DNA of 64,000 nucleotides from Chloroflexota bacterium (GCA_009840135.1 VXOH01000008.1:5450-69449), one strand, 5' to 3'. Positions 36,979 through 60,006 are shown, numbered from the stretch's first letter. A program made the numbers and translations. Notes: a model not told the origin generated them from the sequence alone.

Positions 36979-37100
36979 GCCTCGGATAAAGCCAATTTCT
37001 CATAGCGGCAGTTAGAGTTGCCACTACACAGGTCGCCCCAGGAGGCCGTATTGGGCCATAGGCAGTTTTCCTGCCGATTCTGAAGGAGGGTTTGCTAACC

Positions 37101-37943
37101 ATGACGCAACAACCACTGGCTCTAACCCCCGAACAGGTCAAACGTTACAGTCGCCACATCATCATGGGTGATGTGGGCAGCGCAGGACAGCGCAAGCTCA
37201 TGCAGTCCAAGGCCCTGATAGTAGGAGCGGGTGGGTTGGGTTCTCCCTCGGCCATTTACCTGGCCCTTGCCGGTGTGGGCACCCTGGGTATTGTTGATTT
37301 CGATGTGGTGGAAATATCCAACCTGCAGCGTCAGATTCTCCACCATTCCGACGACATCGGCCGCCCGAAGCTGCAATCGGCCATTGACAACATCCATGCC
37401 TATAATCCCGACGTCAAAGTTGTTCCCCATGAGGTACGGCTGGAGTCGGACAACGCCATTGAAATCATCAGTCAATACGACCTGGTAATCAACGGGGCGG
37501 ACAATTTCGCCACCCGCTACCTGGTCAACGATGCGTGCTACCTGCTGAATAAGCCGCTGGTGGATGGAAGCATCCTCATATTTGACGGCCAGTCAACCTT
37601 GTTCCTTCCCGGACAGGGATGCTATCGCTGCCTTTTCCCGTCGCCTCCCCCTCCGGGCATGGTCCCTAATTGCGCGGAAGCCGGCGTTCTCGGCGCCTTG
37701 ACCGGCCTCGTGGGCAGCATCCAGGCCACTGAGGCCCTTAAGTATTTCCTGGGCATCGGAGAAAGCCTCTGCTCCAGGCTCCTCCTGGTGGACGCCTTGA
37801 GCATGAGTTTCCGCGAGGTGAAGTTGAAGCGCAATCCGGCATGCCCGCTGTGCGGCGAAAATCCGACCGTAACTGAACTGATTGACTACGAGATCTTCTG
37901 CGGAGTAGCGGAGCCGGAGGCGGTTGGGGCCGCCGACAACTAA
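37101..37943 (+). CDS. ThiF/MoeB/HesA family E1-like adenylyltransferase (sulfur-carrier activating enzyme), with no rhodanese domain
   Basis: The segments RYSRHIIM, the nucleotide loop VGAGGLGSP, and the zinc motifs CYRC and CPLCG are present. The ATG at 37101 follows GAAGGAGGG. Confidence 0.85.
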   Translation: MTQQPLALTPEQVKRYSRHIIMGDVGSAGQRKLMQSKALIVGAGGLGSPSAIYLALAGVGTLGIVDFDVVEISNLQRQILHHSDDIGRPKLQSAIDNIHAYNPDVKVVPHEVRLESDNAIEIISQYDLVINGADNFATRYLVNDACYLLNKPLVDGSILIFDGQSTLFLPGQGCYRCLFPSPPPPGMVPNCAEAGVLGALTGLVGSIQATEALKYFLGIGESLCSRLLLVDALSMSFREVKLKRNPACPLCGENPTVTELIDYEIFCGVAEPEAVGAADN

Positions 37944-38061
37944 GCTGTGCAGTCTGATCAGGTCTTCACAGTGGGTGTTCCAACCGTGTGGAGGGGAGGA
38001 AGCTCCGCCGCAATGTTGGGGCCGAAGAAAACGCAGGGGGAGGATTAAACTGGTAAGCGAT

Positions 38062-39012
38062 ATGGTTACGCGGTTGGCATACAAGGGAATACTCGCGGCC
38101 ATTGGGAACACCCCGATGGTGGAGTTGCAGAACCTGAGCCCCAAGCCCGAAGTGCGTATCTTCGCCAAGCTGGAAGGGCAGAACCCCACCGGCAGCGTCA
38201 AAGACCGTATCGCACTGAAGATGATCGAGCGGGCCGAGGCTACCGGGGAAATTTCTCCCAACCGCACTATCCTGGAACCCACCAGTGGGAATACCGGCAT
38301 ATCGCTGGCAATGATTGGAAAGCTCAAAGGCTACAAAGTCACCGTAGTCATGCCGGAGAACGTGAGCGAAGAACGCAGCCAGTTACTCTATGCTTACGGC
38401 GCAGAGATAATTTTCTCCGATGGAGAGAAGGGCAGCAATGGTTCAATCGAGGTAGCCCAGGAACTGGCCGAGAAGAACCCCCATGACTACCTGATGATGT
38501 ACCAGTATGGGAATAGCGCCAACCCGGATGCTCACTACGAGACGACGGGCGAGGAGATCATTAACGCGGTTCCCGAAGTGGATACATTTGTTGCCGGATT
38601 GGGCACCGGCGGGACTTTGATGGGGGTTGCGCGCCGCCTTAAGGAATACAATCCCAACGCCAAGATAGTTGCTGTTGCCCCGGAGCCGGATGACTTGATT
38701 TCCGGACTGCGACGACTGGAAGATGGCTTCATTCCTCCCATTCTTGATATCAACATGCTGGATGCCCGGCTGCTGGTGGGCAGTCTGCCGGCTTTCCGAA
38801 CCACTAAGGAACTTCTTCACCAGGAAGGTATATTTGCGGGCATTTCCTCCGGTTCCGTTGTTTATGGCGCCATGAGGCAAGCGGAGCGAATGGACAGTGG
38901 CAACATCGTGTGCTTGCTGGCCGACGGAGGATGGAAGTACCTGAGCACGAGCCTGTGGACAAAAGACTACGATGAACTGGAGAAGGAAGTTCAGGGCAAA
39001 ATCTGGTGGTAG
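38062..39012 (+). CDS. Cysteine synthase (CysK/CysM family, PLP-dependent)
   Basis: The segments IGNTPMVEL, NPTGSVKDRIAL (PLP lysine) and GTGGTLMG are present. The ATG at 38062 is preferred over the track start at 37924. Confidence 0.9.
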   Translation: MVTRLAYKGILAAIGNTPMVELQNLSPKPEVRIFAKLEGQNPTGSVKDRIALKMIERAEATGEISPNRTILEPTSGNTGISLAMIGKLKGYKVTVVMPENVSEERSQLLYAYGAEIIFSDGEKGSNGSIEVAQELAEKNPHDYLMMYQYGNSANPDAHYETTGEEIINAVPEVDTFVAGLGTGGTLMGVARRLKEYNPNAKIVAVAPEPDDLISGLRRLEDGFIPPILDINMLDARLLVGSLPAFRTTKELLHQEGIFAGISSGSVVYGAMRQAERMDSGNIVCLLADGGWKYLSTSLWTKDYDELEKEVQGKIWW

Positions 39013-41345: not shown

Positions 41346-43139
41346 ATGACTACAGAAGGACAAACGAGGGCAGGTCGCAGGGGCCCGTCTCGAACCCTGG
41401 TTCTGCCGGAAACATTGACCGTCAAACAACTGTCGGAACTGGTTGACCAGAGTCCGGTAGACGTCATCAAACAACTGATGCGTAACGGCATCATGGTTTC
41501 AATGAACCAGATGATTGACCACGAGGTCGCTTCCCTGGTAACAGCCGCTTACGGCATTCGCACCAGGGTAGCCGAGGCCGTAGCCGAGACCGGGTCCCTC
41601 AACAGCTCGGATGGGATGATTGAGGATGAGGCCAGCTTTGTGTCCCGGCCACCTGTGGTTACTATTCTTGGACATGTTGACCATGGCAAAACCAGCCTCC
41701 TGGACTCCATAAGAAACGCACACGTCGCCGACCGGGAGGTTGGTGGCATTACCCAGCACATTGGCGCCTACCAGGTCGAATACAGCGGACAGAGGATCAC
41801 TTTCCTTGACACCCCGGGACATGAAGCATTTACATCAATCCGCTCCCGTGGCGCCCGCGTTACCGACATTGCCGTGTTGGTGGTCGCAGCCGACGATGGC
41901 ATAATGCCGCAAACCGAGGAAGCTATTGACCATGCCAAGGCGGCAGAAGTACCCATCGTTGTCGCAATTAACAAAATGGACCTCCCGGGGGCAGACCCCG
42001 AGCGGGTCAAGCGTCAGTTGAGCCAGCACAATTTGCTGGTCGAGGACTGGGGTGGCGATATTATTTCGGTTCCGGTCTCAGCCAGGACGGGTGACGGCAT
42101 AGACGAACTGCTGGAAAATCTTTTGATTGTGGCCGAAATCTCGGAATTAAAGGCCAATCCTTCCCGCTCAGCCAGCGGCGTGGTAATTGAAGCCAAGCTG
42201 GACCGAAAGCGCGGGCCTATGGCCACGGTGCTGGTCCAGAGTGGGACCCTGGGCGTAGGTGACTTTGTTATAGCCGGGACAGCCTGGGGGCGCGTCAAGG
42301 CCATCAATAACGACCGGGGACGCGCGGTTAAGGGAGTTCTACCGGGGGAGCCTGCCGAACTATTGGGCTTCGGGTCGCTGCCCGAAGCCGGTGATTTAAT
42401 GGCGGTTATGCCCAACGAAAGAACTGTACGGGGTCTGGCCCATGACCGGGAAAGGGCAAAGTCCAGCCAGCAATCCCAGGTCCGCGCCCTCACCCTGGAA
42501 GAGGTAGTAAAGCAGATAGACGCCGGTGACATCAAGGAACTCAACCTGGTACTAAAGGCTGATGTTCAGGGCAGCGTTGAAGCCGTTCGCCAGTCCCTGG
42601 AACGCCTGACCGAAGCGGAGGCCAGGGTGCGCATACTTCACGCCGGCAGCGGAAATGTGACCGAGTCTGATGTGTTGCTGGCCAGCGCCTCTGAAGCTAT
42701 CATTGTGGGCTTCGCGGTGGGGAATGAAATCGGCGTGGAACGGGTAGCAGAGCGCATGGGCGTTGAAATTCGCCACTATTCAATCATTTATCAGATGATT
42801 GATGATGTGGAACAGGCCCTTCACGGCATGCTTGAACCCACCTTTACCGACATAGTCCTGGGAGAAGCAGAGGTCAGGGAGATTTTCCCGGCCCGCCGAA
42901 ACGTCAAGATTGCCGGCTGCCGCGTTACAAACGGCAGAATTCCTCGAGGTTCGGCTATCCGCATCCTGCGGGACGGCGAACTGCTGGAGGAAACCTCCAT
43001 TGCCAGCTTGCGCCACTTCCGGGATGAAGTAAACGAAATCACCAACGGAATGGACTGCGGCATCCTCCTGGAAGATTATAACGACTTCGAAATCGGCGAC
43101 ATTCTTCAGGCCCACCGGCAGGAACGAAGCCAGAGATAG
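41346..43139 (+). CDS. infB: Translation initiation factor IF-2 (short N-terminal form)
   Basis: The motifs [20 protein letters not shown] and NKMD, and the C-terminal domains, are present. Confidence 0.95.
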
Positions 43140-45695: not shown

Positions 45696-46349
45696 CTAGC
45701 CAAACTTGCGTATGACACCCACTACCTTCCCCCTGATCTCAACGTTGTCCGCCTGGCAGAAAATGGGTTCCATGGTTGAATTAGCGGGCTGAAGGCGGAC
45801 CTGGTTACCTTCCAGGTAATATTTCTTGAGGGTCGCCTCTTCCTCTTCCTTGAGCCAGGCTACGACCATCTCCCCCTGCTCAGCCTGCAGGCTCGGCTTG
45901 ACGACGACAACGTCGCCGTCATCAATCAAAGCATCAATCATGGACTGCCCCTGCACCTCGAGCCCGTAAAGCTTGCCGTGCCGCCGCGGCAAATCCGGCG
46001 GGACTTCCACTGTATCGAACTCCTGGCTGGCCTTGCTCCCTTCTGCGGAGAAAGCGGGCAAGGGGGACCCTGCGGCAATGCGCCCCACAATCTGCATCCT
46101 GGGGGCGGAGTTAAGCGGCTGGCCCTCGTCGTCCAGCAGTTCTATGCCGCGGGCCACGTCGGGACGCCGGTTCAAATAACCATCCCGGTCCAGCAGCCGG
46201 AGGTTATAGTCAACTACAGAAGTGGAACTGATCTCGCAAGCCTTCTGTATGTCGCGCACAGTGGGAGGCAAGCCATTCTCGTCAATGAAGGCCTGAATGA
46301 AATCGAGGATTCGCTGGCGTCGGGCAGTTAGCTTCTTGTTCGTAGTCAT
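45696..46349 (-). CDS. lexA: LexA repressor
   Basis: The wHTH reads LTARRQRILDFIQAFIDENGLPPTVRDI. The cleavage and peptidase motifs are VQGQSMIDALIDDGDVVVV and ATLKKY. The ATG at 46349 is preferred. Confidence 0.9.
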   Translation of the reverse strand: MTTNKKLTARRQRILDFIQAFIDENGLPPTVRDIQKACEISSTSVVDYNLRLLDRDGYLNRRPDVARGIELLDDEGQPLNSAPRMQIVGRIAAGSPLPAFSAEGSKASQEFDTVEVPPDLPRRHGKLYGLEVQGQSMIDALIDDGDVVVVKPSLQAEQGEMVVAWLKEEEEATLKKYYLEGNQVRLQPANSTMEPIFCQADNVEIRGKVVGVIRKFG

Positions 46350-46360
46350 AAAAGTTCCTT

Positions 46361-46372
46361 GAACTAATGTTC
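46361..46372. promoter_or_regulatory. LexA (SOS/Cheo-type) box GAACTAATGTTC
   Basis: This is a perfect GAAC-N4-GTTC palindrome 12 nt upstream of the lexA ATG, at the predicted transcription start. Confidence 0.75.
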
Positions 46373-46377
46373 TCAAT

Positions 46378-46561: not shown

Positions 46562-46816
46562 TTAATTCTTGATCTGGTTCAGCCTGGCTTCCAGGCGGGC
46601 CTTGCGCCTGGAGGCATTGTTCTTATGAAGGACTCCCTTCTTGACGGCTTTATCCAACAGGCTGATGGCAGACCGAATGGCCGGCTCCGCAACCTCTTCA
46701 TTCCCGGAAGCGACTGCTCTTCGCGCACCGGCAATTGCGGTGCGGGTGGTACGCCGCACGCTCTGGTTGCGACGGTACCGTTTGACTGACTGACGGGCGG
46801 CCTTCCTAGATGGCAA
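46562..46816 (-). CDS. rpsT: 30S ribosomal protein S20
   Basis: The sequence PSRKAARQSVKRYRRNQSVRRTTRTAI...KKGVLHKNNASRRKARL is present. The start codon is TTG. Confidence 0.9.
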   Translation of the reverse strand: MPSRKAARQSVKRYRRNQSVRRTTRTAIAGARRAVASGNEEVAEPAIRSAISLLDKAVKKGVLHKNNASRRKARLEARLNQIKN

Positions 46817-54179: not shown

Positions 54180-54902
54180 GTGACAGAAGAGTTAGTCTTA
54201 ATCCAAAGGCTCCTGGCCGCAATAGTAGTTGGTTATTTGTTCGGTTCCATTCCATTGGCACACCTCGTAGCTCGACGCCACGGCATTGATATATTCGCCA
54301 CAGGCAGCACCAGGGCAGGCACGGCAAATGTCTTCTGGAATATCAGCAGATGGAAGGGCATTCTGGTATTTGCGGGCGACGCGGCCAAGGGTTATCTCGC
54401 CATCGAATTTGCCAGGCTCCTGGGCGTACCGGACAGCGCGCTGATCCTGGCCGGCGGCGCCGCAGTTGCCGGTCATTGGAAGTCCATCTTCACCAGGTTC
54501 AAGGGTGGCGACGGGATGGTAACGCTCCTTGGAGTGACTGTCGCGCTCACTCCGATGCTTTCACCCATCGGAATTGCCATTGGAATAGGCGCCGTATTGT
54601 TAACACGACGCTCCCCCTTCCGTTCCTCTCTGGGCATTATCGCCTGCTATTCGGTGTTGCTGGTATTGAGCCAGTCGCTGGGTTATTTTTCGTCTGAACG
54701 AATACTTGTGATGGAATTGTCAGTCCTGGCCCTGCTGGTCATCTTCCACAATGTCCTGATCCACCGACGCCACGCGCCCATTCTGGCGTCCAGGAAACAG
54801 AATGCCAGGATGGGCGATGAGATAGATGAATTTATCGACCTGGAGCTGGATGACGACCTCCCTGATTTGGAAACTGACATCACGGAGGAAGGAAGGGCCT
54901 GA
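54180..54902 (+). CDS. PlsY-like acyl-phosphate:glycerol-3-phosphate acyltransferase paralog (divergent) with an acidic C-terminal tail
   Basis: The segment GYLFGSIPLAHLVARRHGIDI..GS..AGTANV...GDAAKG follows the PlsY pattern, but the GSGNxGATN motif is degenerate (GSTRAGTAN). The start codon is GTG. Confidence 0.6.
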   Translation: MTEELVLIQRLLAAIVVGYLFGSIPLAHLVARRHGIDIFATGSTRAGTANVFWNISRWKGILVFAGDAAKGYLAIEFARLLGVPDSALILAGGAAVAGHWKSIFTRFKGGDGMVTLLGVTVALTPMLSPIGIAIGIGAVLLTRRSPFRSSLGIIACYSVLLVLSQSLGYFSSERILVMELSVLALLVIFHNVLIHRRHAPILASRKQNARMGDEIDEFIDLELDDDLPDLETDITEEGRA

Positions 54903-55073: not shown

Positions 55074-56321
55074 CTAATTGCGGTGGTTAAAGTCCTTCTT
55101 CAGCTCGGTCAAGGCCAGCACCCATCCCAGGTTCTCGTCGTCGTGGGCTTCCTCGGCAAAGTGACTCTCCAGTCTCACTGCTTCGTCAAGATACCGGAGG
55201 CACAACTCGATCTGTCCTTGCCTGGCGTATTGGCGTGCCACGTTGTACCAGGCCACCGCAAAGGAAGGTTCCTCAGCCAGGGCAGCCAGGTAGTCAACCA
55301 GAGCGTTGTCATCCATTCCCATCGCCTCGTAGGCGGCGCCGCGATTGTTCAGGGCGGCCGGAAAGTTGGGAAGCAACTCCACGGCGGAGCAATAGTCTTC
55401 CAGGGCTTTCTCGTACTCCTCCAGCGCGTCATAGGCCAGACCCCTGTTGTTCAGGGCTTCCGCATCTTCAGGCCTCAGGTCAACAACCCGCGAATAATCT
55501 TCGATGGCGTCCTCTATGTGACCGAGATAGTAAAAGGTCCGCGCTCGGTTGAAGTAGGCGTCGGCATTCTCGGGATTGCAGTCTATTGCCGTACCGTAGT
55601 CTGCCACGGCCCGGTCGTGAAGCTCCAGCTCGTCGAGGGAAGCGCCCCGGTTCAGGTAAGCATTGGACAAATTGGGACGGAGTTCAATCGCCCGGTCAAA
55701 GGCGGTAACAGCCTCCCGGTGCCGGCCCGTTCTCGCCAGCACCACCCCCTGATTGTAATGCGCCTGCAGGTAGTCAGGTGACAGGGCAATTGCGCAGGCG
55801 TAATCGGCCAGGGCGGTTTCGGCTTCGTCCAGGTCATCGTAGGCGTTGCCCCGCTGGTAATGGGCTTCTGCCATGTCCGGGTTGAGTTGCAAAACCCGGG
55901 AAAACTCTTCCACAGCTCTGCCAGGCTCTCTCAGCCTGAGAAATGCCAGTCCCAGATTGAAGCTCGCCACCGGATTCTCGGGTTCGTTGGCCAGAATGCT
56001 GCGGTACACCTGAGCGGCCTCGTCATAGCGCCCGATGGCAAAACAACCGTTGCCGAAGACCTGGTCTCCATTGACCTCAATTCCAGACCGCGCGGAATCA
56101 ACTATGCCATTGAGCGCTTTCTCCATCTCCCGCGCCGCCGGACCCCTCAACCTTCCTCCCCTGGGAAAGGGAGTCAAATAAGCAACTCCAACACCGTTGT
56201 CCTGCAGGAGAACAATGAGCTTATCGCGGTATGTTTCGGAAGTTTCCATCTCGGCTACCTTTACAATCAAAACACTTTCAAAACAATCAAATGCGTCCGC
56301 ATATGCAGGACTTGATAGCAT
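55074..56321 (-). CDS. Tetratricopeptide repeat (TPR) protein
   Basis: About 9 tandem 34-aa repeats with the A..Y..A...P.....Y.N.G pattern are present. The start is TTG 56321 or ATG 56249. Confidence 0.8.
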   Translation of the reverse strand: MLSSPAYADAFDCFESVLIVKVAEMETSETYRDKLIVLLQDNGVGVAYLTPFPRGGRLRGPAAREMEKALNGIVDSARSGIEVNGDQVFGNGCFAIGRYDEAAQVYRSILANEPENPVASFNLGLAFLRLREPGRAVEEFSRVLQLNPDMAEAHYQRGNAYDDLDEAETALADYACAIALSPDYLQAHYNQGVVLARTGRHREAVTAFDRAIELRPNLSNAYLNRGASLDELELHDRAVADYGTAIDCNPENADAYFNRARTFYYLGHIEDAIEDYSRVVDLRPEDAEALNNRGLAYDALEEYEKALEDYCSAVELLPNFPAALNNRGAAYEAMGMDDNALVDYLAALAEEPSFAVAWYNVARQYARQGQIELCLRYLDEAVRLESHFAEEAHDDENLGWVLALTELKKDFNHRN

Positions 56322-56415
56322 ATCACGAAAAAGCGACCGCCAAGATTCGAGACAGCTGGGTAATTGGCTGAAAATGCCTTCATACGAAAGAAATTCCTGG
56401 CGGCAGGCTCCCAGT

Positions 56416-56444
56416 TTGAATATTTGAGGTTACCCCCGTAAAAT
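56416..56444 (+). promoter_or_regulatory. Promoter TTGAAT-N17-TAAAAT upstream of the glutaredoxin-like gene
   Basis: The hexamers are near consensus with a 17-nt spacer. The predicted transcript begins with an 8-bp hairpin, CAGGTAGC...GCTACCTG (56451..56490). Confidence 0.65.
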
Positions 56445-56528
56445 GAGCTTCAGGTAGCCGACCAATAGCTCTTAGCTACCTGCACTGTTTCCCTCAGCCC
56501 TCGACCTCTACAACTCAGGAGCCTGACC

Positions 56529-56768
56529 GTGACAACCGAAAGCACCGACAACCTGCTAATTTACACTCATCCCGACTGTTCATTTTCCTCGGCGGCCAAA
56601 ATGGAATACCGTCGCGGCCGCATCCCCTATACTGAGATAGATCTGGCAAAGCAGCCGGACCAGATTCCTGCTCTACTGGAATTGACCAACGGCGAACGTA
56701 TTACTCCGGTCATCGTTCAGGATGGCGTTGTGACCATTGGTTACAAGGGCGGGTATTGAGACTTCTAA
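56529..56768 (+). CDS. Glutaredoxin/NrdH-like protein. It is a candidate selenoprotein in which TGA at 56757 is read as Sec, giving the C-terminus ...GGY-U-D-F-stop. The conventional end is 56759.
   Basis: The thioredoxin-fold pattern reads LLIYTHPDCSFSSAAKMEY...ITPVIVQDGVVTIGYKGGY. The active site is C-x-x-S and lacks a resolving Cys. TGA GAC TTC TAA is followed by a hairpin. The GTG start follows AGGAG by 7 nt. Confidence 0.6.
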
Positions 56769-56770
56769 CT

Positions 56771-56789
56771 GCCGGGCCGTAGGCCCGGT
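56771..56789 (+). promoter_or_regulatory. GC hairpin 15 nt after the TGA (candidate bacterial SECIS; alternatively an atypical terminator)
   Basis: CCGGGCC gta GGCCCGG forms 7 GC pairs plus a G-U closing pair. The loop contains G and U, and no T-tract follows. Confidence 0.45.
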
Positions 56790-57021
56790 CATAATTTCAT
56801 GATTTCGGGACACCCAAGCGGTGTCGCTCCTGCATTCGGCAACTCTGTTAAGAGGCCGATGGCACGGGAATTCACTTGGGTTTTTGGCGACAACATCCGA
56901 ACCCGCGCCACTCGAATCCGTGACAACTCTGCAGCCAACATTTTACTGACAGTTGCTTCTTGTTGGCACTCCGGGCCCCGTGCTAGGATTTCCTCAACTT
57001 GTTAGGGGGAAGGGAAGGAAA

Positions 57022-58116
57022 ATGGCAACCGACGCAAAGAAAGACAAGCTGGCGGCCTTGGAAATCGCCCTGGGACGAATCGAAAAAGACCACGGCAAGG
57101 GCGCCGTAATGCGGCTCGGCGAAGAGGCCGCCCAGCGCCTGAGCACCGAGGTTATACCGACCGGCTCATTGGCCCTGGATATTGCCCTGGGCGCCGGGGG
57201 TATTCCCAGGGGCCGGGTAACGGAAATCTATGGCAGCGAATCTGCCGGCAAGTCCACCCTGGCCATTCACATTATGTCCGAGACCCAGAAACTGGGGGGT
57301 ATTGCGGCCTACGTAGATGCAGAGCACGCTCTGGACCCCTCATACGCTTCCAACTGCGGCCTCAGTCTGGACGACCTTCTGATTTCCCAGCCCGACAGTG
57401 GGGAACAAGCCCTCGACATCACCGAACAGTTGGTGCGGAGCGGCGCCGTGGACACCATCGTTGTGGACAGCGTGGCGGCACTGGTGCCCCAGGCGGAGAT
57501 CGAAGGGGACATCGGGGATACCCACGTCGGTTTGCAGGCCCGTTTAATGTCGCAGGCCCTCAGAAAACTGACTTCTACTATCCATCATTCCCGCACCGCA
57601 GTGATATTCATCAACCAACTCCGGGAAAAAGTGGGCATCTCCTACGGAAGCCCGGAGGTAACTCCTGGCGGACGCGCCCTCAAATTCTACAGTTCCGTGC
57701 GAATAGACCTGCGTCGCACCGAATCCATCAAGCAGGGCTCGGATATCATTGGCAGCCGGGTCCGCGCTCGCGTCGTAAAAAACAAGGTGGCCGCACCCTT
57801 CCGGGTCACCGAGTTCGACATTATGTTCAACAAAGGAATCAGCAAGATGGGAGACCTGCTGGAACTGGGAGTAAATGAAGGCATTCTGAAGAAGGCCGGC
57901 GCCTTTTACTCCTATGGCGATACCCGGTTGGGCCAGGGACGGGAAAATTCCAAGGACTTCCTCGCCCAGCACCCGGAGATAGCTGAATCCATCGAATCCC
58001 GGGTACGAGCAAAGCTGTCTCCGCAGACTGACAACGCCGCCACGGAGAATCCACCCAGCGAAGATGACGTCAACGCCATTCTTGCTACGCTGTCGGATCA
58101 GGAGGAGAAGGAATAG
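57022..58116 (+). CDS. recA: Recombinase RecA
   Basis: The segments [23 protein letters not shown], Walker [10 protein letters not shown] and [17 protein letters not shown] are present. The ATG at 57022 follows GGGAAGGGAAGGA. Confidence 0.95.
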
Positions 58117-59241: not shown

Positions 59242-60006
59242 CTACTGAGGAATACGGCTGATCCACTCGGCACGTTCGTCCACGTCTCTGTCCCGCACCA
59301 ATCGGTTGAAGATTACTTTCTTTTTGGAAAGACCTTCAGGAAAAGCCGGTGAATTGGAAAGACCTCTCTTGACTAGTACCATGACGAGGATAAGTCCACA
59401 ATAACAGCTTATCACAGCAGCGTATCCTGAAGGGGCCGACTGGAGTGCTTCTCCGCCCATGAGTGCCCAAATAGCAATCCAGCTCGTTACCAAATAGCCG
59501 CCAGGCCACAGAGCCAATACCGGAAGACTCGCCGTCGCAATCAATGCCCACACCGCCGAGCTTCGGCTAACCCGCCACCCAAGCAGATAAACGGACATCC
59601 CCACAGCAAATAGAGCAGGGGCCAGCGAAAATACTATCCCGCAGATAACCATCAAGCCCCTGCCACCCTGAAATCGCAGGAACGGCGACCAGTTATTTCC
59701 AATCAATGCCAGTAAAGGCGAGGCGAGGAAAAGACAGAGCGATGAAAGCGGCAGTTCACGCGGGGGACCAAATACCAAGAGGCCGAGTACAAAGGGGGAA
59801 AAACCCTTGAGCAGCAGTTCCACGAGGGTGAGCGGTACAATCCAGACCTTGCCCAACTGCCTTACAACATTGGACCCGCCAACATTGCCGCTGCCGTACT
59901 CGCGAAGATCTATACCCCTGGTCAGCTTCGCGATCAAGTAGGGGGTGGGAACAGCGCCGGCCAAGTACGAATAACCGTAGAGGGCCGCCACTTCCAAATA
60001 CATCAA
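59242..60006 (-). CDS. plsY: PlsY family acyl-phosphate:glycerol-3-phosphate acyltransferase
   Basis: The segments YLAGAVPTPYLIAKL..GIDLREYGSGNVGGSNV and LLKG are present. The protein is polytopic. Confidence 0.7.
   Translation of the reverse strand: MMYLEVAALYGYSYLAGAVPTPYLIAKLTRGIDLREYGSGNVGGSNVVRQLGKVWIVPLTLVELLLKGFSPFVLGLLVFGPPRELPLSSLCLFLASPLLALIGNNWSPFLRFQGGRGLMVICGIVFSLAPALFAVGMSVYLLGWRVSRSSAVWALIATASLPVLALWPGGYLVTSWIAIWALMGGEALQSAPSGYAAVISCYCGLILVMVLVKRGLSNSPAFPEGLSKKKVIFNRLVRDRDVDERAEWISRIPQ

Follow-up and report, generated by a model that had tools for sequence, protein, structure and literature searches.

Locus and Gene Product

A 64,000-nucleotide (nt) stretch of DNA from a Chloroflexota bacterium (GCA_009840135.1 VXOH01000008.1:5450-69449), referred to here as the window and numbered from its first letter, carries at 56416-56789 a small glutaredoxin-like gene with a promoter-like site ahead of it, an in-frame TGA two codons before its final stop, and an RNA hairpin behind it. 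On sequence comparison the gene, which comes from the metagenome-assembled genome (MAG) of a marine or sponge-associated member of the Dehalococcoidia (Chloroflexota), belongs to UXX-star (seleno)protein family 2, and its TGA is, in our judgment, very probably a selenocysteine (Sec) codon, which would make this a selenoprotein gene. The features on which the argument draws are as follows.

56529..56768, + strand: predicted coding sequence of a UXX-star family 2 glutaredoxin-like selenoprotein, 79 amino acids (aa) with Sec77, real stop TAA at 56766-56768
56517..56521, + strand: Shine-Dalgarno sequence AGGAG, 7 nt 5′ of the GTG start, as read from the sequence
56577..56588, + strand: active-site motif Cys17-Ser-Phe-Ser at the N-terminus of helix 1, Cys17 being invariant in the homologue alignment
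56757..56759, + strand: in-frame TGA, predicted codon of Sec77; TGA is the first stop throughout (79/79 species), and Cys is aligned with it in Cys-form members
56760..56765, + strand: two sense codons after the predicted Sec, GAC (Asp78, 56760-62) and TTC (Phe79, 56763-65); always two codons, [D/E]-F
56771..56789, + strand: putative bacterial selenocysteine insertion sequence (SECIS) hairpin placed wholly 3′ of the real stop, with an 8-bp stem and a loop G23-U24-A25 (the U of UGA being position 1)
56416..56444, + strand: sigma-70-type promoter-like site of presumed function, TTGAAT (56416-21), 17-nt spacer and TAAAAT (56439-44), a 9/12 match

The GTG at 56529 starts a 76-codon open reading frame (ORF; 56529-56756), MTTESTDNLLIYTHPDCSFSS...TIGYKGGY, and it is this exact 76-aa product that GenBank holds, from a MAG contig of 71 kb, as 'hypothetical protein F4X65_00575 [Chloroflexi bacterium]' and that is also present on a sponge-metagenome scaffold in ENA. 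An earlier reading of the stretch (hereafter, the original prediction) had the gene end as ...TIGYKGGY TGA GAC TTC TAA, which matches the window to the base, from the TGA at 56757 to the TAA at 56766-68. It further held that the redox motif C-S-F-S lacks the usual resolving Cys and that gene callers would cut the protein three residues short; Cys17, in C-S-F-S at 56577-56588, is indeed the sole Cys of the protein, and GenBank lists 76 aa as opposed to 79. The deposited annotation would then lack three residues, among them the one that probably does the chemistry, and standard gene callers leave the same three-residue shortfall in more than 100 homologues, such that the practical outcome of this work is the correction of a truncated annotation.

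Conservation of the Gene End

The gene end was surveyed in the DNA of 80 GTDB species representatives, all Dehalococcoidia/Chloroflexota MAGs, in 79 of which it lies on the contig. All 120 homologues listed end in ...KGG[Y/T], so that every gene caller evidently stopped at the same codon, and all 79 readable species have TGA as this first stop. Between it and the second stop there are always exactly two codons (79/79 species), which encode Asp or Glu followed by Phe and vary synonymously (GAC/GAT, GAG/GAA, TTC/TTT); the second stop is itself variable (TAG 38, TAA 30, and TGA 10 among the 78 parsed rows). The original prediction had allowed that homologues might simply end at GGY; what they carry instead is a TGA, two conserved codons, and a variable stop. 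Among the 37 long ORFs in the window, the stops are TAG in 22, TGA in 9, and TAA in 6, and TGA is thus an ordinary stop here in a standard genetic code. An invariant TGA beside a freely varying second stop, in a setting where TGA is ordinary, therefore argues for selection rather than codon usage, and a fixed TGA, a variable second stop, and amino-acid conservation in between is the pattern that translation through the TGA would predict.

These observations bear directly on the plainest alternative, in which the gene encodes an ordinary 76-aa glutaredoxin-like protein that ends at the TGA, the hairpin acts at the transcript end, in mRNA stability, or in protein binding, and chance accounts for the two codons and stop in between. 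GenBank and all gene callers annotate the gene in this manner, as a 76-aa 'hypothetical protein'. Termination at the TGA is nevertheless very improbable, considering a first stop fixed as TGA where TGA makes up 24% of local stops, a spacing of exactly two [D/E]-F codons conserved through synonymous third-position changes next to a stop that is free to vary, and the existence of homologues with a Cys-x-x end.

Homologues With Cysteine

A profile search of 1.84 billion representatives returned 337 relatives. Many of these stop at G-x-G or GG-x, suggesting that they were cut short at a TGA, while others continue with Cys (...GGVGCAF, ...NGFGCSF, ...MGRGCAF, and ...KGRYCAV). When the window protein was aligned with 14 distant representatives, with Sec entered as X so that it exerted no attraction toward Cys, the Sec position fell in the Cys column for 11 of the 14. 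One Cys form, P0144 (...GGVGCAF), itself scores above the cut-off of NF041211, the family model discussed below. The N-terminal site of most distant relatives is C-x-x-S/T rather than C-x-x-C, which fits a C-terminal Cys/Sec as the second redox or ligand residue; the active-site motif is CSFS, CAYS, or CAFS in 118/120 homologues. The Dehalococcoidia clade appears to keep only Sec forms (79/79 species), with a U-[D/E]-F end and a site just upstream of recA, in contrast to other members of UXX-star family 2, which include Cys forms or a copper-operon setting. One ocean/sponge Chloroflexota clade would thus retain selenocysteine, and never cysteine, at the Sec77 position.

Family Membership

The original prediction had tentatively pointed to a curated family named for its U-x-x-stop ending, and such a family exists. 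With Sec written as Cys in the query, the 79-aa form scores 113.9 bits against NF041211 ('UXX-star (seleno)protein family 2'), an NCBIfam equivalog model with a curated whole-protein cut-off of 100 bits, and covers profile positions 2-71 of 71. It also scores 93.1 bits against the parent model NF041212 ('Uxx-star family glutaredoxin-like (seleno)protein'; cut-off 66) and 29.2 bits against Pfam Glutaredoxin PF00462 (cut-off 22.9). The 76-aa form, which lacks the extension, passes the NF041211 cut-off as well, at 105.6 bits, a point in favor of termination at the TGA; it ends at profile position 67, and the last profile position is aligned only with the three extra residues included. Several orthologues at 70-82% identity (70-95% for the named set) are labeled 'UXX-star (seleno)protein family 2 [Chloroflexota/Dehalococcoidia bacterium]' by NCBI.

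The window gene shares with UXX-star family 2 a glutaredoxin-like fold, a single N-terminal Cys, a C-terminal G-x-U-x-x-stop, and a score above cut-off across the whole model, and exhibits no defining difference from it. With UXX-star families 1 and 3 and the HUGP/GUXX-star fusions (NF041114, NF047338, NF045501) it shares the glutaredoxin-like domain and the C-terminal U/C-x-x-stop, giving secondary matches of 48-62 bits, but it remains under all of their cut-offs (72, 97, and 325). Family-3-like relatives end in ...APDGG-x-x-F, some with neither Cys nor Sec, and the fusion proteins possess an additional N-terminal domain. The window protein is likewise under the cut-offs of the NrdH, YruB, and Grx models.

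The selenoprotein call is therefore correct rather than new. The family is already curated in NCBIfam; it was published by Haft and Tolstoy (2025, mSystems 10:e0141724), as cited in a 2026 review that also lists it (PMC13188914). The novelty of the call is accordingly low, and current understanding of the family is unchanged.

A Hairpin Behind the Second Stop

The hairpin, GCCGGGCC-GUA-GGCCCGGU at 56771-56789, consists of seven G-C pairs and a closing G-U pair (folding free energy, dG, -15.6 kcal/mol) and begins two bases past the TAA, 11 nt downstream of the UGA. The 7-bp all-G/C stem that the original prediction had placed 15 nt after the U of UGA, with a loop GUA, is found as described (CCGGGCC/GGCCCGG from 56772, loop at 56779-81), and the flanking G-U pair extends it to 8 bp. 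The absence of a T-tract behind it, likewise part of that description, also holds: the tail CATAATTTCATG has no U-tract, 0 terminator-like calls were made in 56250-57100, and an intrinsic (Rho-independent) terminator was rejected. The tails of the relatives' hairpins are not U-rich, L040 excepted.

The unremarkable fold of this element as a single sequence counts against a selenocysteine codon and is a point for termination at the TGA. The 61-nt segment folds no better than its shuffles (z = -0.98), and a loose scan of the window yields 23 in-frame TGA sites with a downstream G-in-loop hairpin. The single-sequence signal is within chance, and it is therefore the comparison across relatives that carries the case. 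Downstream of the second stop, a hairpin is present in essentially every species surveyed, with stems that differ (GGGCC, GGAGGCC, GAAGAC, GATTCA, and others), loops of GUU, AGUU, GGUC, GGUU, or GUA, and a UGA-to-loop distance of 16-21 nt. The G of the loop GU lies at nt 21-25 in 69/76 sequences, mostly at nt 22-23. Conservation of both the loop G-U and the distance from the UGA, for which a terminator has no need, and the absence of a U-tract further disfavor an ordinary 76-aa protein with an unrelated hairpin.

The stems covary in both loop classes.

4-nt-loop class: 42 sequences, 85% of cells paired, double changes at 7/7 pairs, 0/500 shuffles reaching the score
3-nt-loop class: 24 sequences, 88% of cells paired, double changes at 8/8 pairs, 0/500 shuffles reaching the score

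These figures come from windows anchored by our own hairpin finder and hence biased toward pairing, which is a second mark against the selenocysteine reading; as a control, sliding the 3′ partner by 1-3 columns lowered pairing to 23-61%. A plain, unanchored MAFFT alignment (RNAalifold) predicts only 3 consensus pairs because the 3-nt-loop and 4-nt-loop classes are mixed in it, and all three exhibit compensatory changes. Conservation of the hairpin, the lack of which would have counted against the original prediction, is thus seen at the level of structure.

The published consensus for bacterial SECIS elements (bSECIS) specifies a loop of 3-9 nt on a stem of 4-16 bp, a G in the first two loop positions that is usually followed by G or U, a distance of 16-37 nt from UGA to loop, and a minimum free energy of at most -7.5 kcal/mol (PMC13188914). 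The window hairpin agrees with it in 4/4 respects (3-nt loop GUA on an 8-bp stem, G first and then U, 19-nt spacing, and -15.6 kcal/mol), as do 60/76 relatives. Fifteen of the remaining 16 miss the perfect-stem energy threshold only, save that L011 and L048, with 3 perfect pairs each, are additionally short of the 4-bp stem minimum; the L048 hairpin pairs poorly. Rfam contains no family matching the hairpin.

A closer parallel is the SECIS of Escherichia coli fdhF, whose UGA stands at codon 140, with an upper hairpin that extends from nt 15 and a loop, GGUC, at nt 22-25. The two elements share a hairpin start at nt 15 (11 nt after the UGA) and G23-U24 in the apical loop. They differ in that the element of fdhF is part of the coding region and has a bulged U, a long lower stem, and the loop GGUC, whereas the window element has a simple perfect 8-bp stem and the loop GUA, lies entirely past the real stop, and is only predicted to bind SelB. 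Given that only two codons follow the Sec, the SECIS would be located wholly within the 3′ untranslated region. The locus therefore offers a clean natural example of a predicted bacterial SECIS wholly behind a real stop, in the UGA-to-loop register of E. coli fdhF, and it could represent a natural, class-wide case of a bacterial SECIS working entirely from the 3′ untranslated region. If true, this would contradict the textbook placement of bacterial SECIS elements inside coding regions. Arner et al. reportedly expressed thioredoxin reductase in E. coli in 1999 with an engineered SECIS after the stop codon, and an untranslated element of the bacterial type is thus said to work.

Proposed Decoding of the UGA

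In the mechanism that we propose, translation would start at the GTG at 56529; at the UGA at 56757, the hairpin at 56771-56789 would, through its loop G23-U24, recruit SelB carrying Sec-tRNA(Sec); Sec77 would be inserted instead of termination; and Asp and Phe would be added after it before the ribosome halts at the UAA at 56766. The literature supports such decoding at the level of the lineage. In BSepDB, where a genome qualifies only if it has two or more Sec-pathway genes (PMC13326102), the richest bacteria include a pair of Dehalococcoidia MAGs with totals of 49 and 46 selenoproteins, and tRNA-Sec is mentioned in Chloroflexi (Mukai et al., PMC5389517).

The remaining considerations that weigh against selenocysteine concern the machinery and its products. 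Searches by tblastn with E. coli K-12 SelA, SelB, and SelD across the 64-kb window and the flanks of the 80 relatives (about 1.5 Mb) recovered no selA, selB, or selD, an absence from the window that would also agree with termination at the TGA. The only SelB-like match, at 41655-42287, is IF-2, within a nusA-infB-truB cluster. ARAGORN detected no tRNA genes in the window and no tRNA-Sec in 60 related loci, and Rfam gave no match either. The Sec trait of this particular genome thus rests on lineage-level literature, and we infer actual Sec insertion in this organism from the conservation described above. A second selenoprotein gene was not found in the window or flanks by a loose TGA-plus-hairpin scan, a screen for Sec/Cys pairs in which 14,396 peptides spanning a TGA were compared with 12,708 ORFs, or a scan with a family-specific SECIS pattern; the literature consulted likewise yielded no 75Se labelling or mass spectrometry on any UXX-star member. 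The candidates left by the screens were rejected as off-frame or antisense artefacts, among them a TGA at 46626 (+) that is matched by Cys in three relatives but lies antisense to rpsT (ribosomal protein S20; 46562-46816) and reflects conservation of the other strand.

Downstream structures stimulate stop-codon read-through in other systems. The UGA could by analogy be read as Trp, Cys, or Gly by near-cognate or suppressor tRNAs, or under a reassigned code, with the hairpin stimulating read-through, and a Sec machinery that is only presumed for this genome leaves some room for such a scheme. Like termination at the TGA, it is very improbable: TGA ends 9/37 well-supported genes in the window, as expected of the standard code, the hairpin fits the SelB-type SECIS consensus and the E. 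coli fdhF register, the lineage is documented as rich in selenoproteins, and the residue aligned in homologues without the TGA is Cys rather than Trp or Gly, the hallmark of Sec/Cys pairs. Selenocysteine thus remains the reading that we prefer.

Fold and Proposed Chemistry

An AlphaFold2 model built with 22 homologues (mean predicted local distance difference test score 79.7) has the order beta-alpha-beta-alpha-beta-beta, with a strand at 9-13, a helix at 18-29, a strand at 35-38, a helix at 43-52, strands at 61-64 and 67-70, and coil to the end. As modeled, the product is a minimal thioredoxin fold that lacks the usual C-terminal helix. Its best Foldseek matches in the PDB are the NrdH-like BC3987 and glutaredoxins, at template-modeling (TM) scores of 0.73-0.76 (3zij and others). 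A PDB sequence search gave marginal glutaredoxin/NrdH matches (E ~0.01); its matches to 'Cake' repeat proteins were rejected as spurious. The window protein resembles monothiol (CGFS-type) glutaredoxins and NrdH/BC3987-like redoxins in its fold, its one-Cys active site of the C-x-F-S-like kind, and its Gly-Gly turn after strand 4, and departs from them in the missing C-terminal helix, Sec in place of Cys, and the absence of the CGFS Fe-S signature.

In the model, helix 1 has Cys17 at its N-terminus, and strand 4 leads directly into the Gly-Gly-Tyr-Sec tail, which places the Sec two residues beyond the Gly-Gly turn that follows this strand. The corresponding GG turn of glutaredoxins is next to the active site, and a Cys17-Sec77 selenenylsulfide is therefore plausible; in yeast Grx5, a Cys right after the GG is able to pair with the active-site Cys. 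Cys17 and Sec77 would thus form a reversible selenenylsulfide, with Sec replacing the missing resolving Cys of CxxC, in a role akin to that of the second Cys in monothiol glutaredoxins. Mammalian thioredoxin reductase provides a likeness from an unrelated family, with a C-terminal Gly-Cys-Sec-Gly-stop redox centre on a flexible tail that forms a selenenylsulfide. Common to both are a Sec within three residues of the C-terminus and, as far as the proposed centre goes, a Cys-Sec pair; the partner Cys is adjacent to Sec in that large flavoenzyme, whereas the presumed partner here is Cys17 of a 79-aa thioredoxin fold.

A redox couple of Cys17 and Sec77 is the reading of function that we favor, and what tempers it is that we infer the couple, and with it the physiological substrate, together with signs of a metal-related role elsewhere in the family. 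Accepting the same gene and the same Sec decoding, Cys17 and Sec77 could instead ligate a soft metal such as Cu(I), Hg, or As, or the tail could handle another substrate, the protein being a metal chaperone or sensor and not a disulfide reductase. Consistent with this proposal, the Sec of UXX-star proteins may bind metals according to the review of the family (PMC13188914), and one family-2 member, P0132 (110 bits, above the NF041211 cut-off), is the last gene of a copper-efflux operon in another lineage (L084 2751-6243, 1.07-Mb ENA contig ERZ26167216), directly behind csoR, a copA-type P-type ATPase gene with an HMA domain, and a YHS-domain gene; its end reads TGA-AGC-TTT-TGA followed by a hairpin, CGGGGCA-GTT-TGCCCCG. 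These data hint at a copper link for part of UXX-star family 2. Another relative, however, adjoins a Clp_N protein, and the copper context is therefore not general; the neighbourhoods of distant family members are inconsistent, being the copper operon, the Clp_N protein, or contigs too short to judge. In the window and in 75/76 Dehalococcoidia loci the gene is surrounded by recA, a TPR protein, plsY, and rny, and metal genes are absent nearby; its product has both the fold and the C-x-x-S motif of a thiol-disulfide oxidoreductase. Metal ligation is the main alternative but the less likely one, and the thiol-selenol couple is preferred.

Upstream Signals and Gene Neighbourhood

The interval of the original prediction begins at the promoter-like site at 56416. 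An arrangement of TTGAAT-N17-(C)GTAAAAT/TAGAAT/TACAAT is found upstream of the orthologue in most Dehalococcoidia loci, and relatives carry (C)AGGAG or AAGGAG at the place equivalent to the Shine-Dalgarno sequence before the start. Between the promoter-like site and the Shine-Dalgarno sequence, the 5′ untranslated region of the window contains an 8-bp inverted repeat, CAGGTAGC...GCTACCTG (56451-56458 / 56475-56482); the sequences of this region differ in relatives, and some of them are self-complementary too.

Downstream and co-directional, recA begins from about 57022. The selenoprotein gene stands directly upstream of a co-directional recA (window 56529-58116; loci L002-L081) in 75/76 Dehalococcoidia species, at a distance of 150-600 bp, and a divergent TPR gene lies upstream of it in 64/76 loci. 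No terminator-like site was called between the selenoprotein gene and recA. An apparently obligate Sec (79 species), a conserved promoter-like site of its own, and this co-directional placement with no terminator in between raise the prospect that the gene is functionally tied to recA in marine/sponge Dehalococcoidia, either because its transcription, SelB-SECIS occupancy, or the selenium supply modulates recA, or because the redoxin serves a DNA-repair partner. We consider such a tie improbable. The genes plsY, TPR gene, recA, a recX-sized 79-aa ORF, rny, and ymdB are syntenic across the class, and the recA adjacency may therefore be mere conserved gene order. No LexA box was found before the selenoprotein gene or recA.

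The only perfect box in the window is a GAACTAATGTTC palindrome of the Gram-positive LexA type at 46361-46372, which overlaps the start of lexA (45696-46376, -) and suggests lexA autoregulation. Two PlsY paralogues (glycerol-3-phosphate acyltransferase, PF02660), at 54180-54902 (+) and 59242-60006 (-), flank the selenoprotein-recA region and are both conserved in most related loci. Farther along the same contig, about 0.5-1.8 kb past the window end and ~7.7 kb downstream of the selenoprotein gene, is a gene of the selenium-binding protein 56 (SBP56)/methanethiol-oxidase family (PF05694; 456 aa, L001 17930-19300). Elsewhere in the window, at 37092-39012, there is a 20-nt overlap between a MoeB/MoeZ-type adenylyltransferase (E1-like) gene and the start of a gene for a cysteine synthase of the CysK/CysM type, a pair reminiscent of sulfur-carrier-protein-dependent cysteine synthesis.

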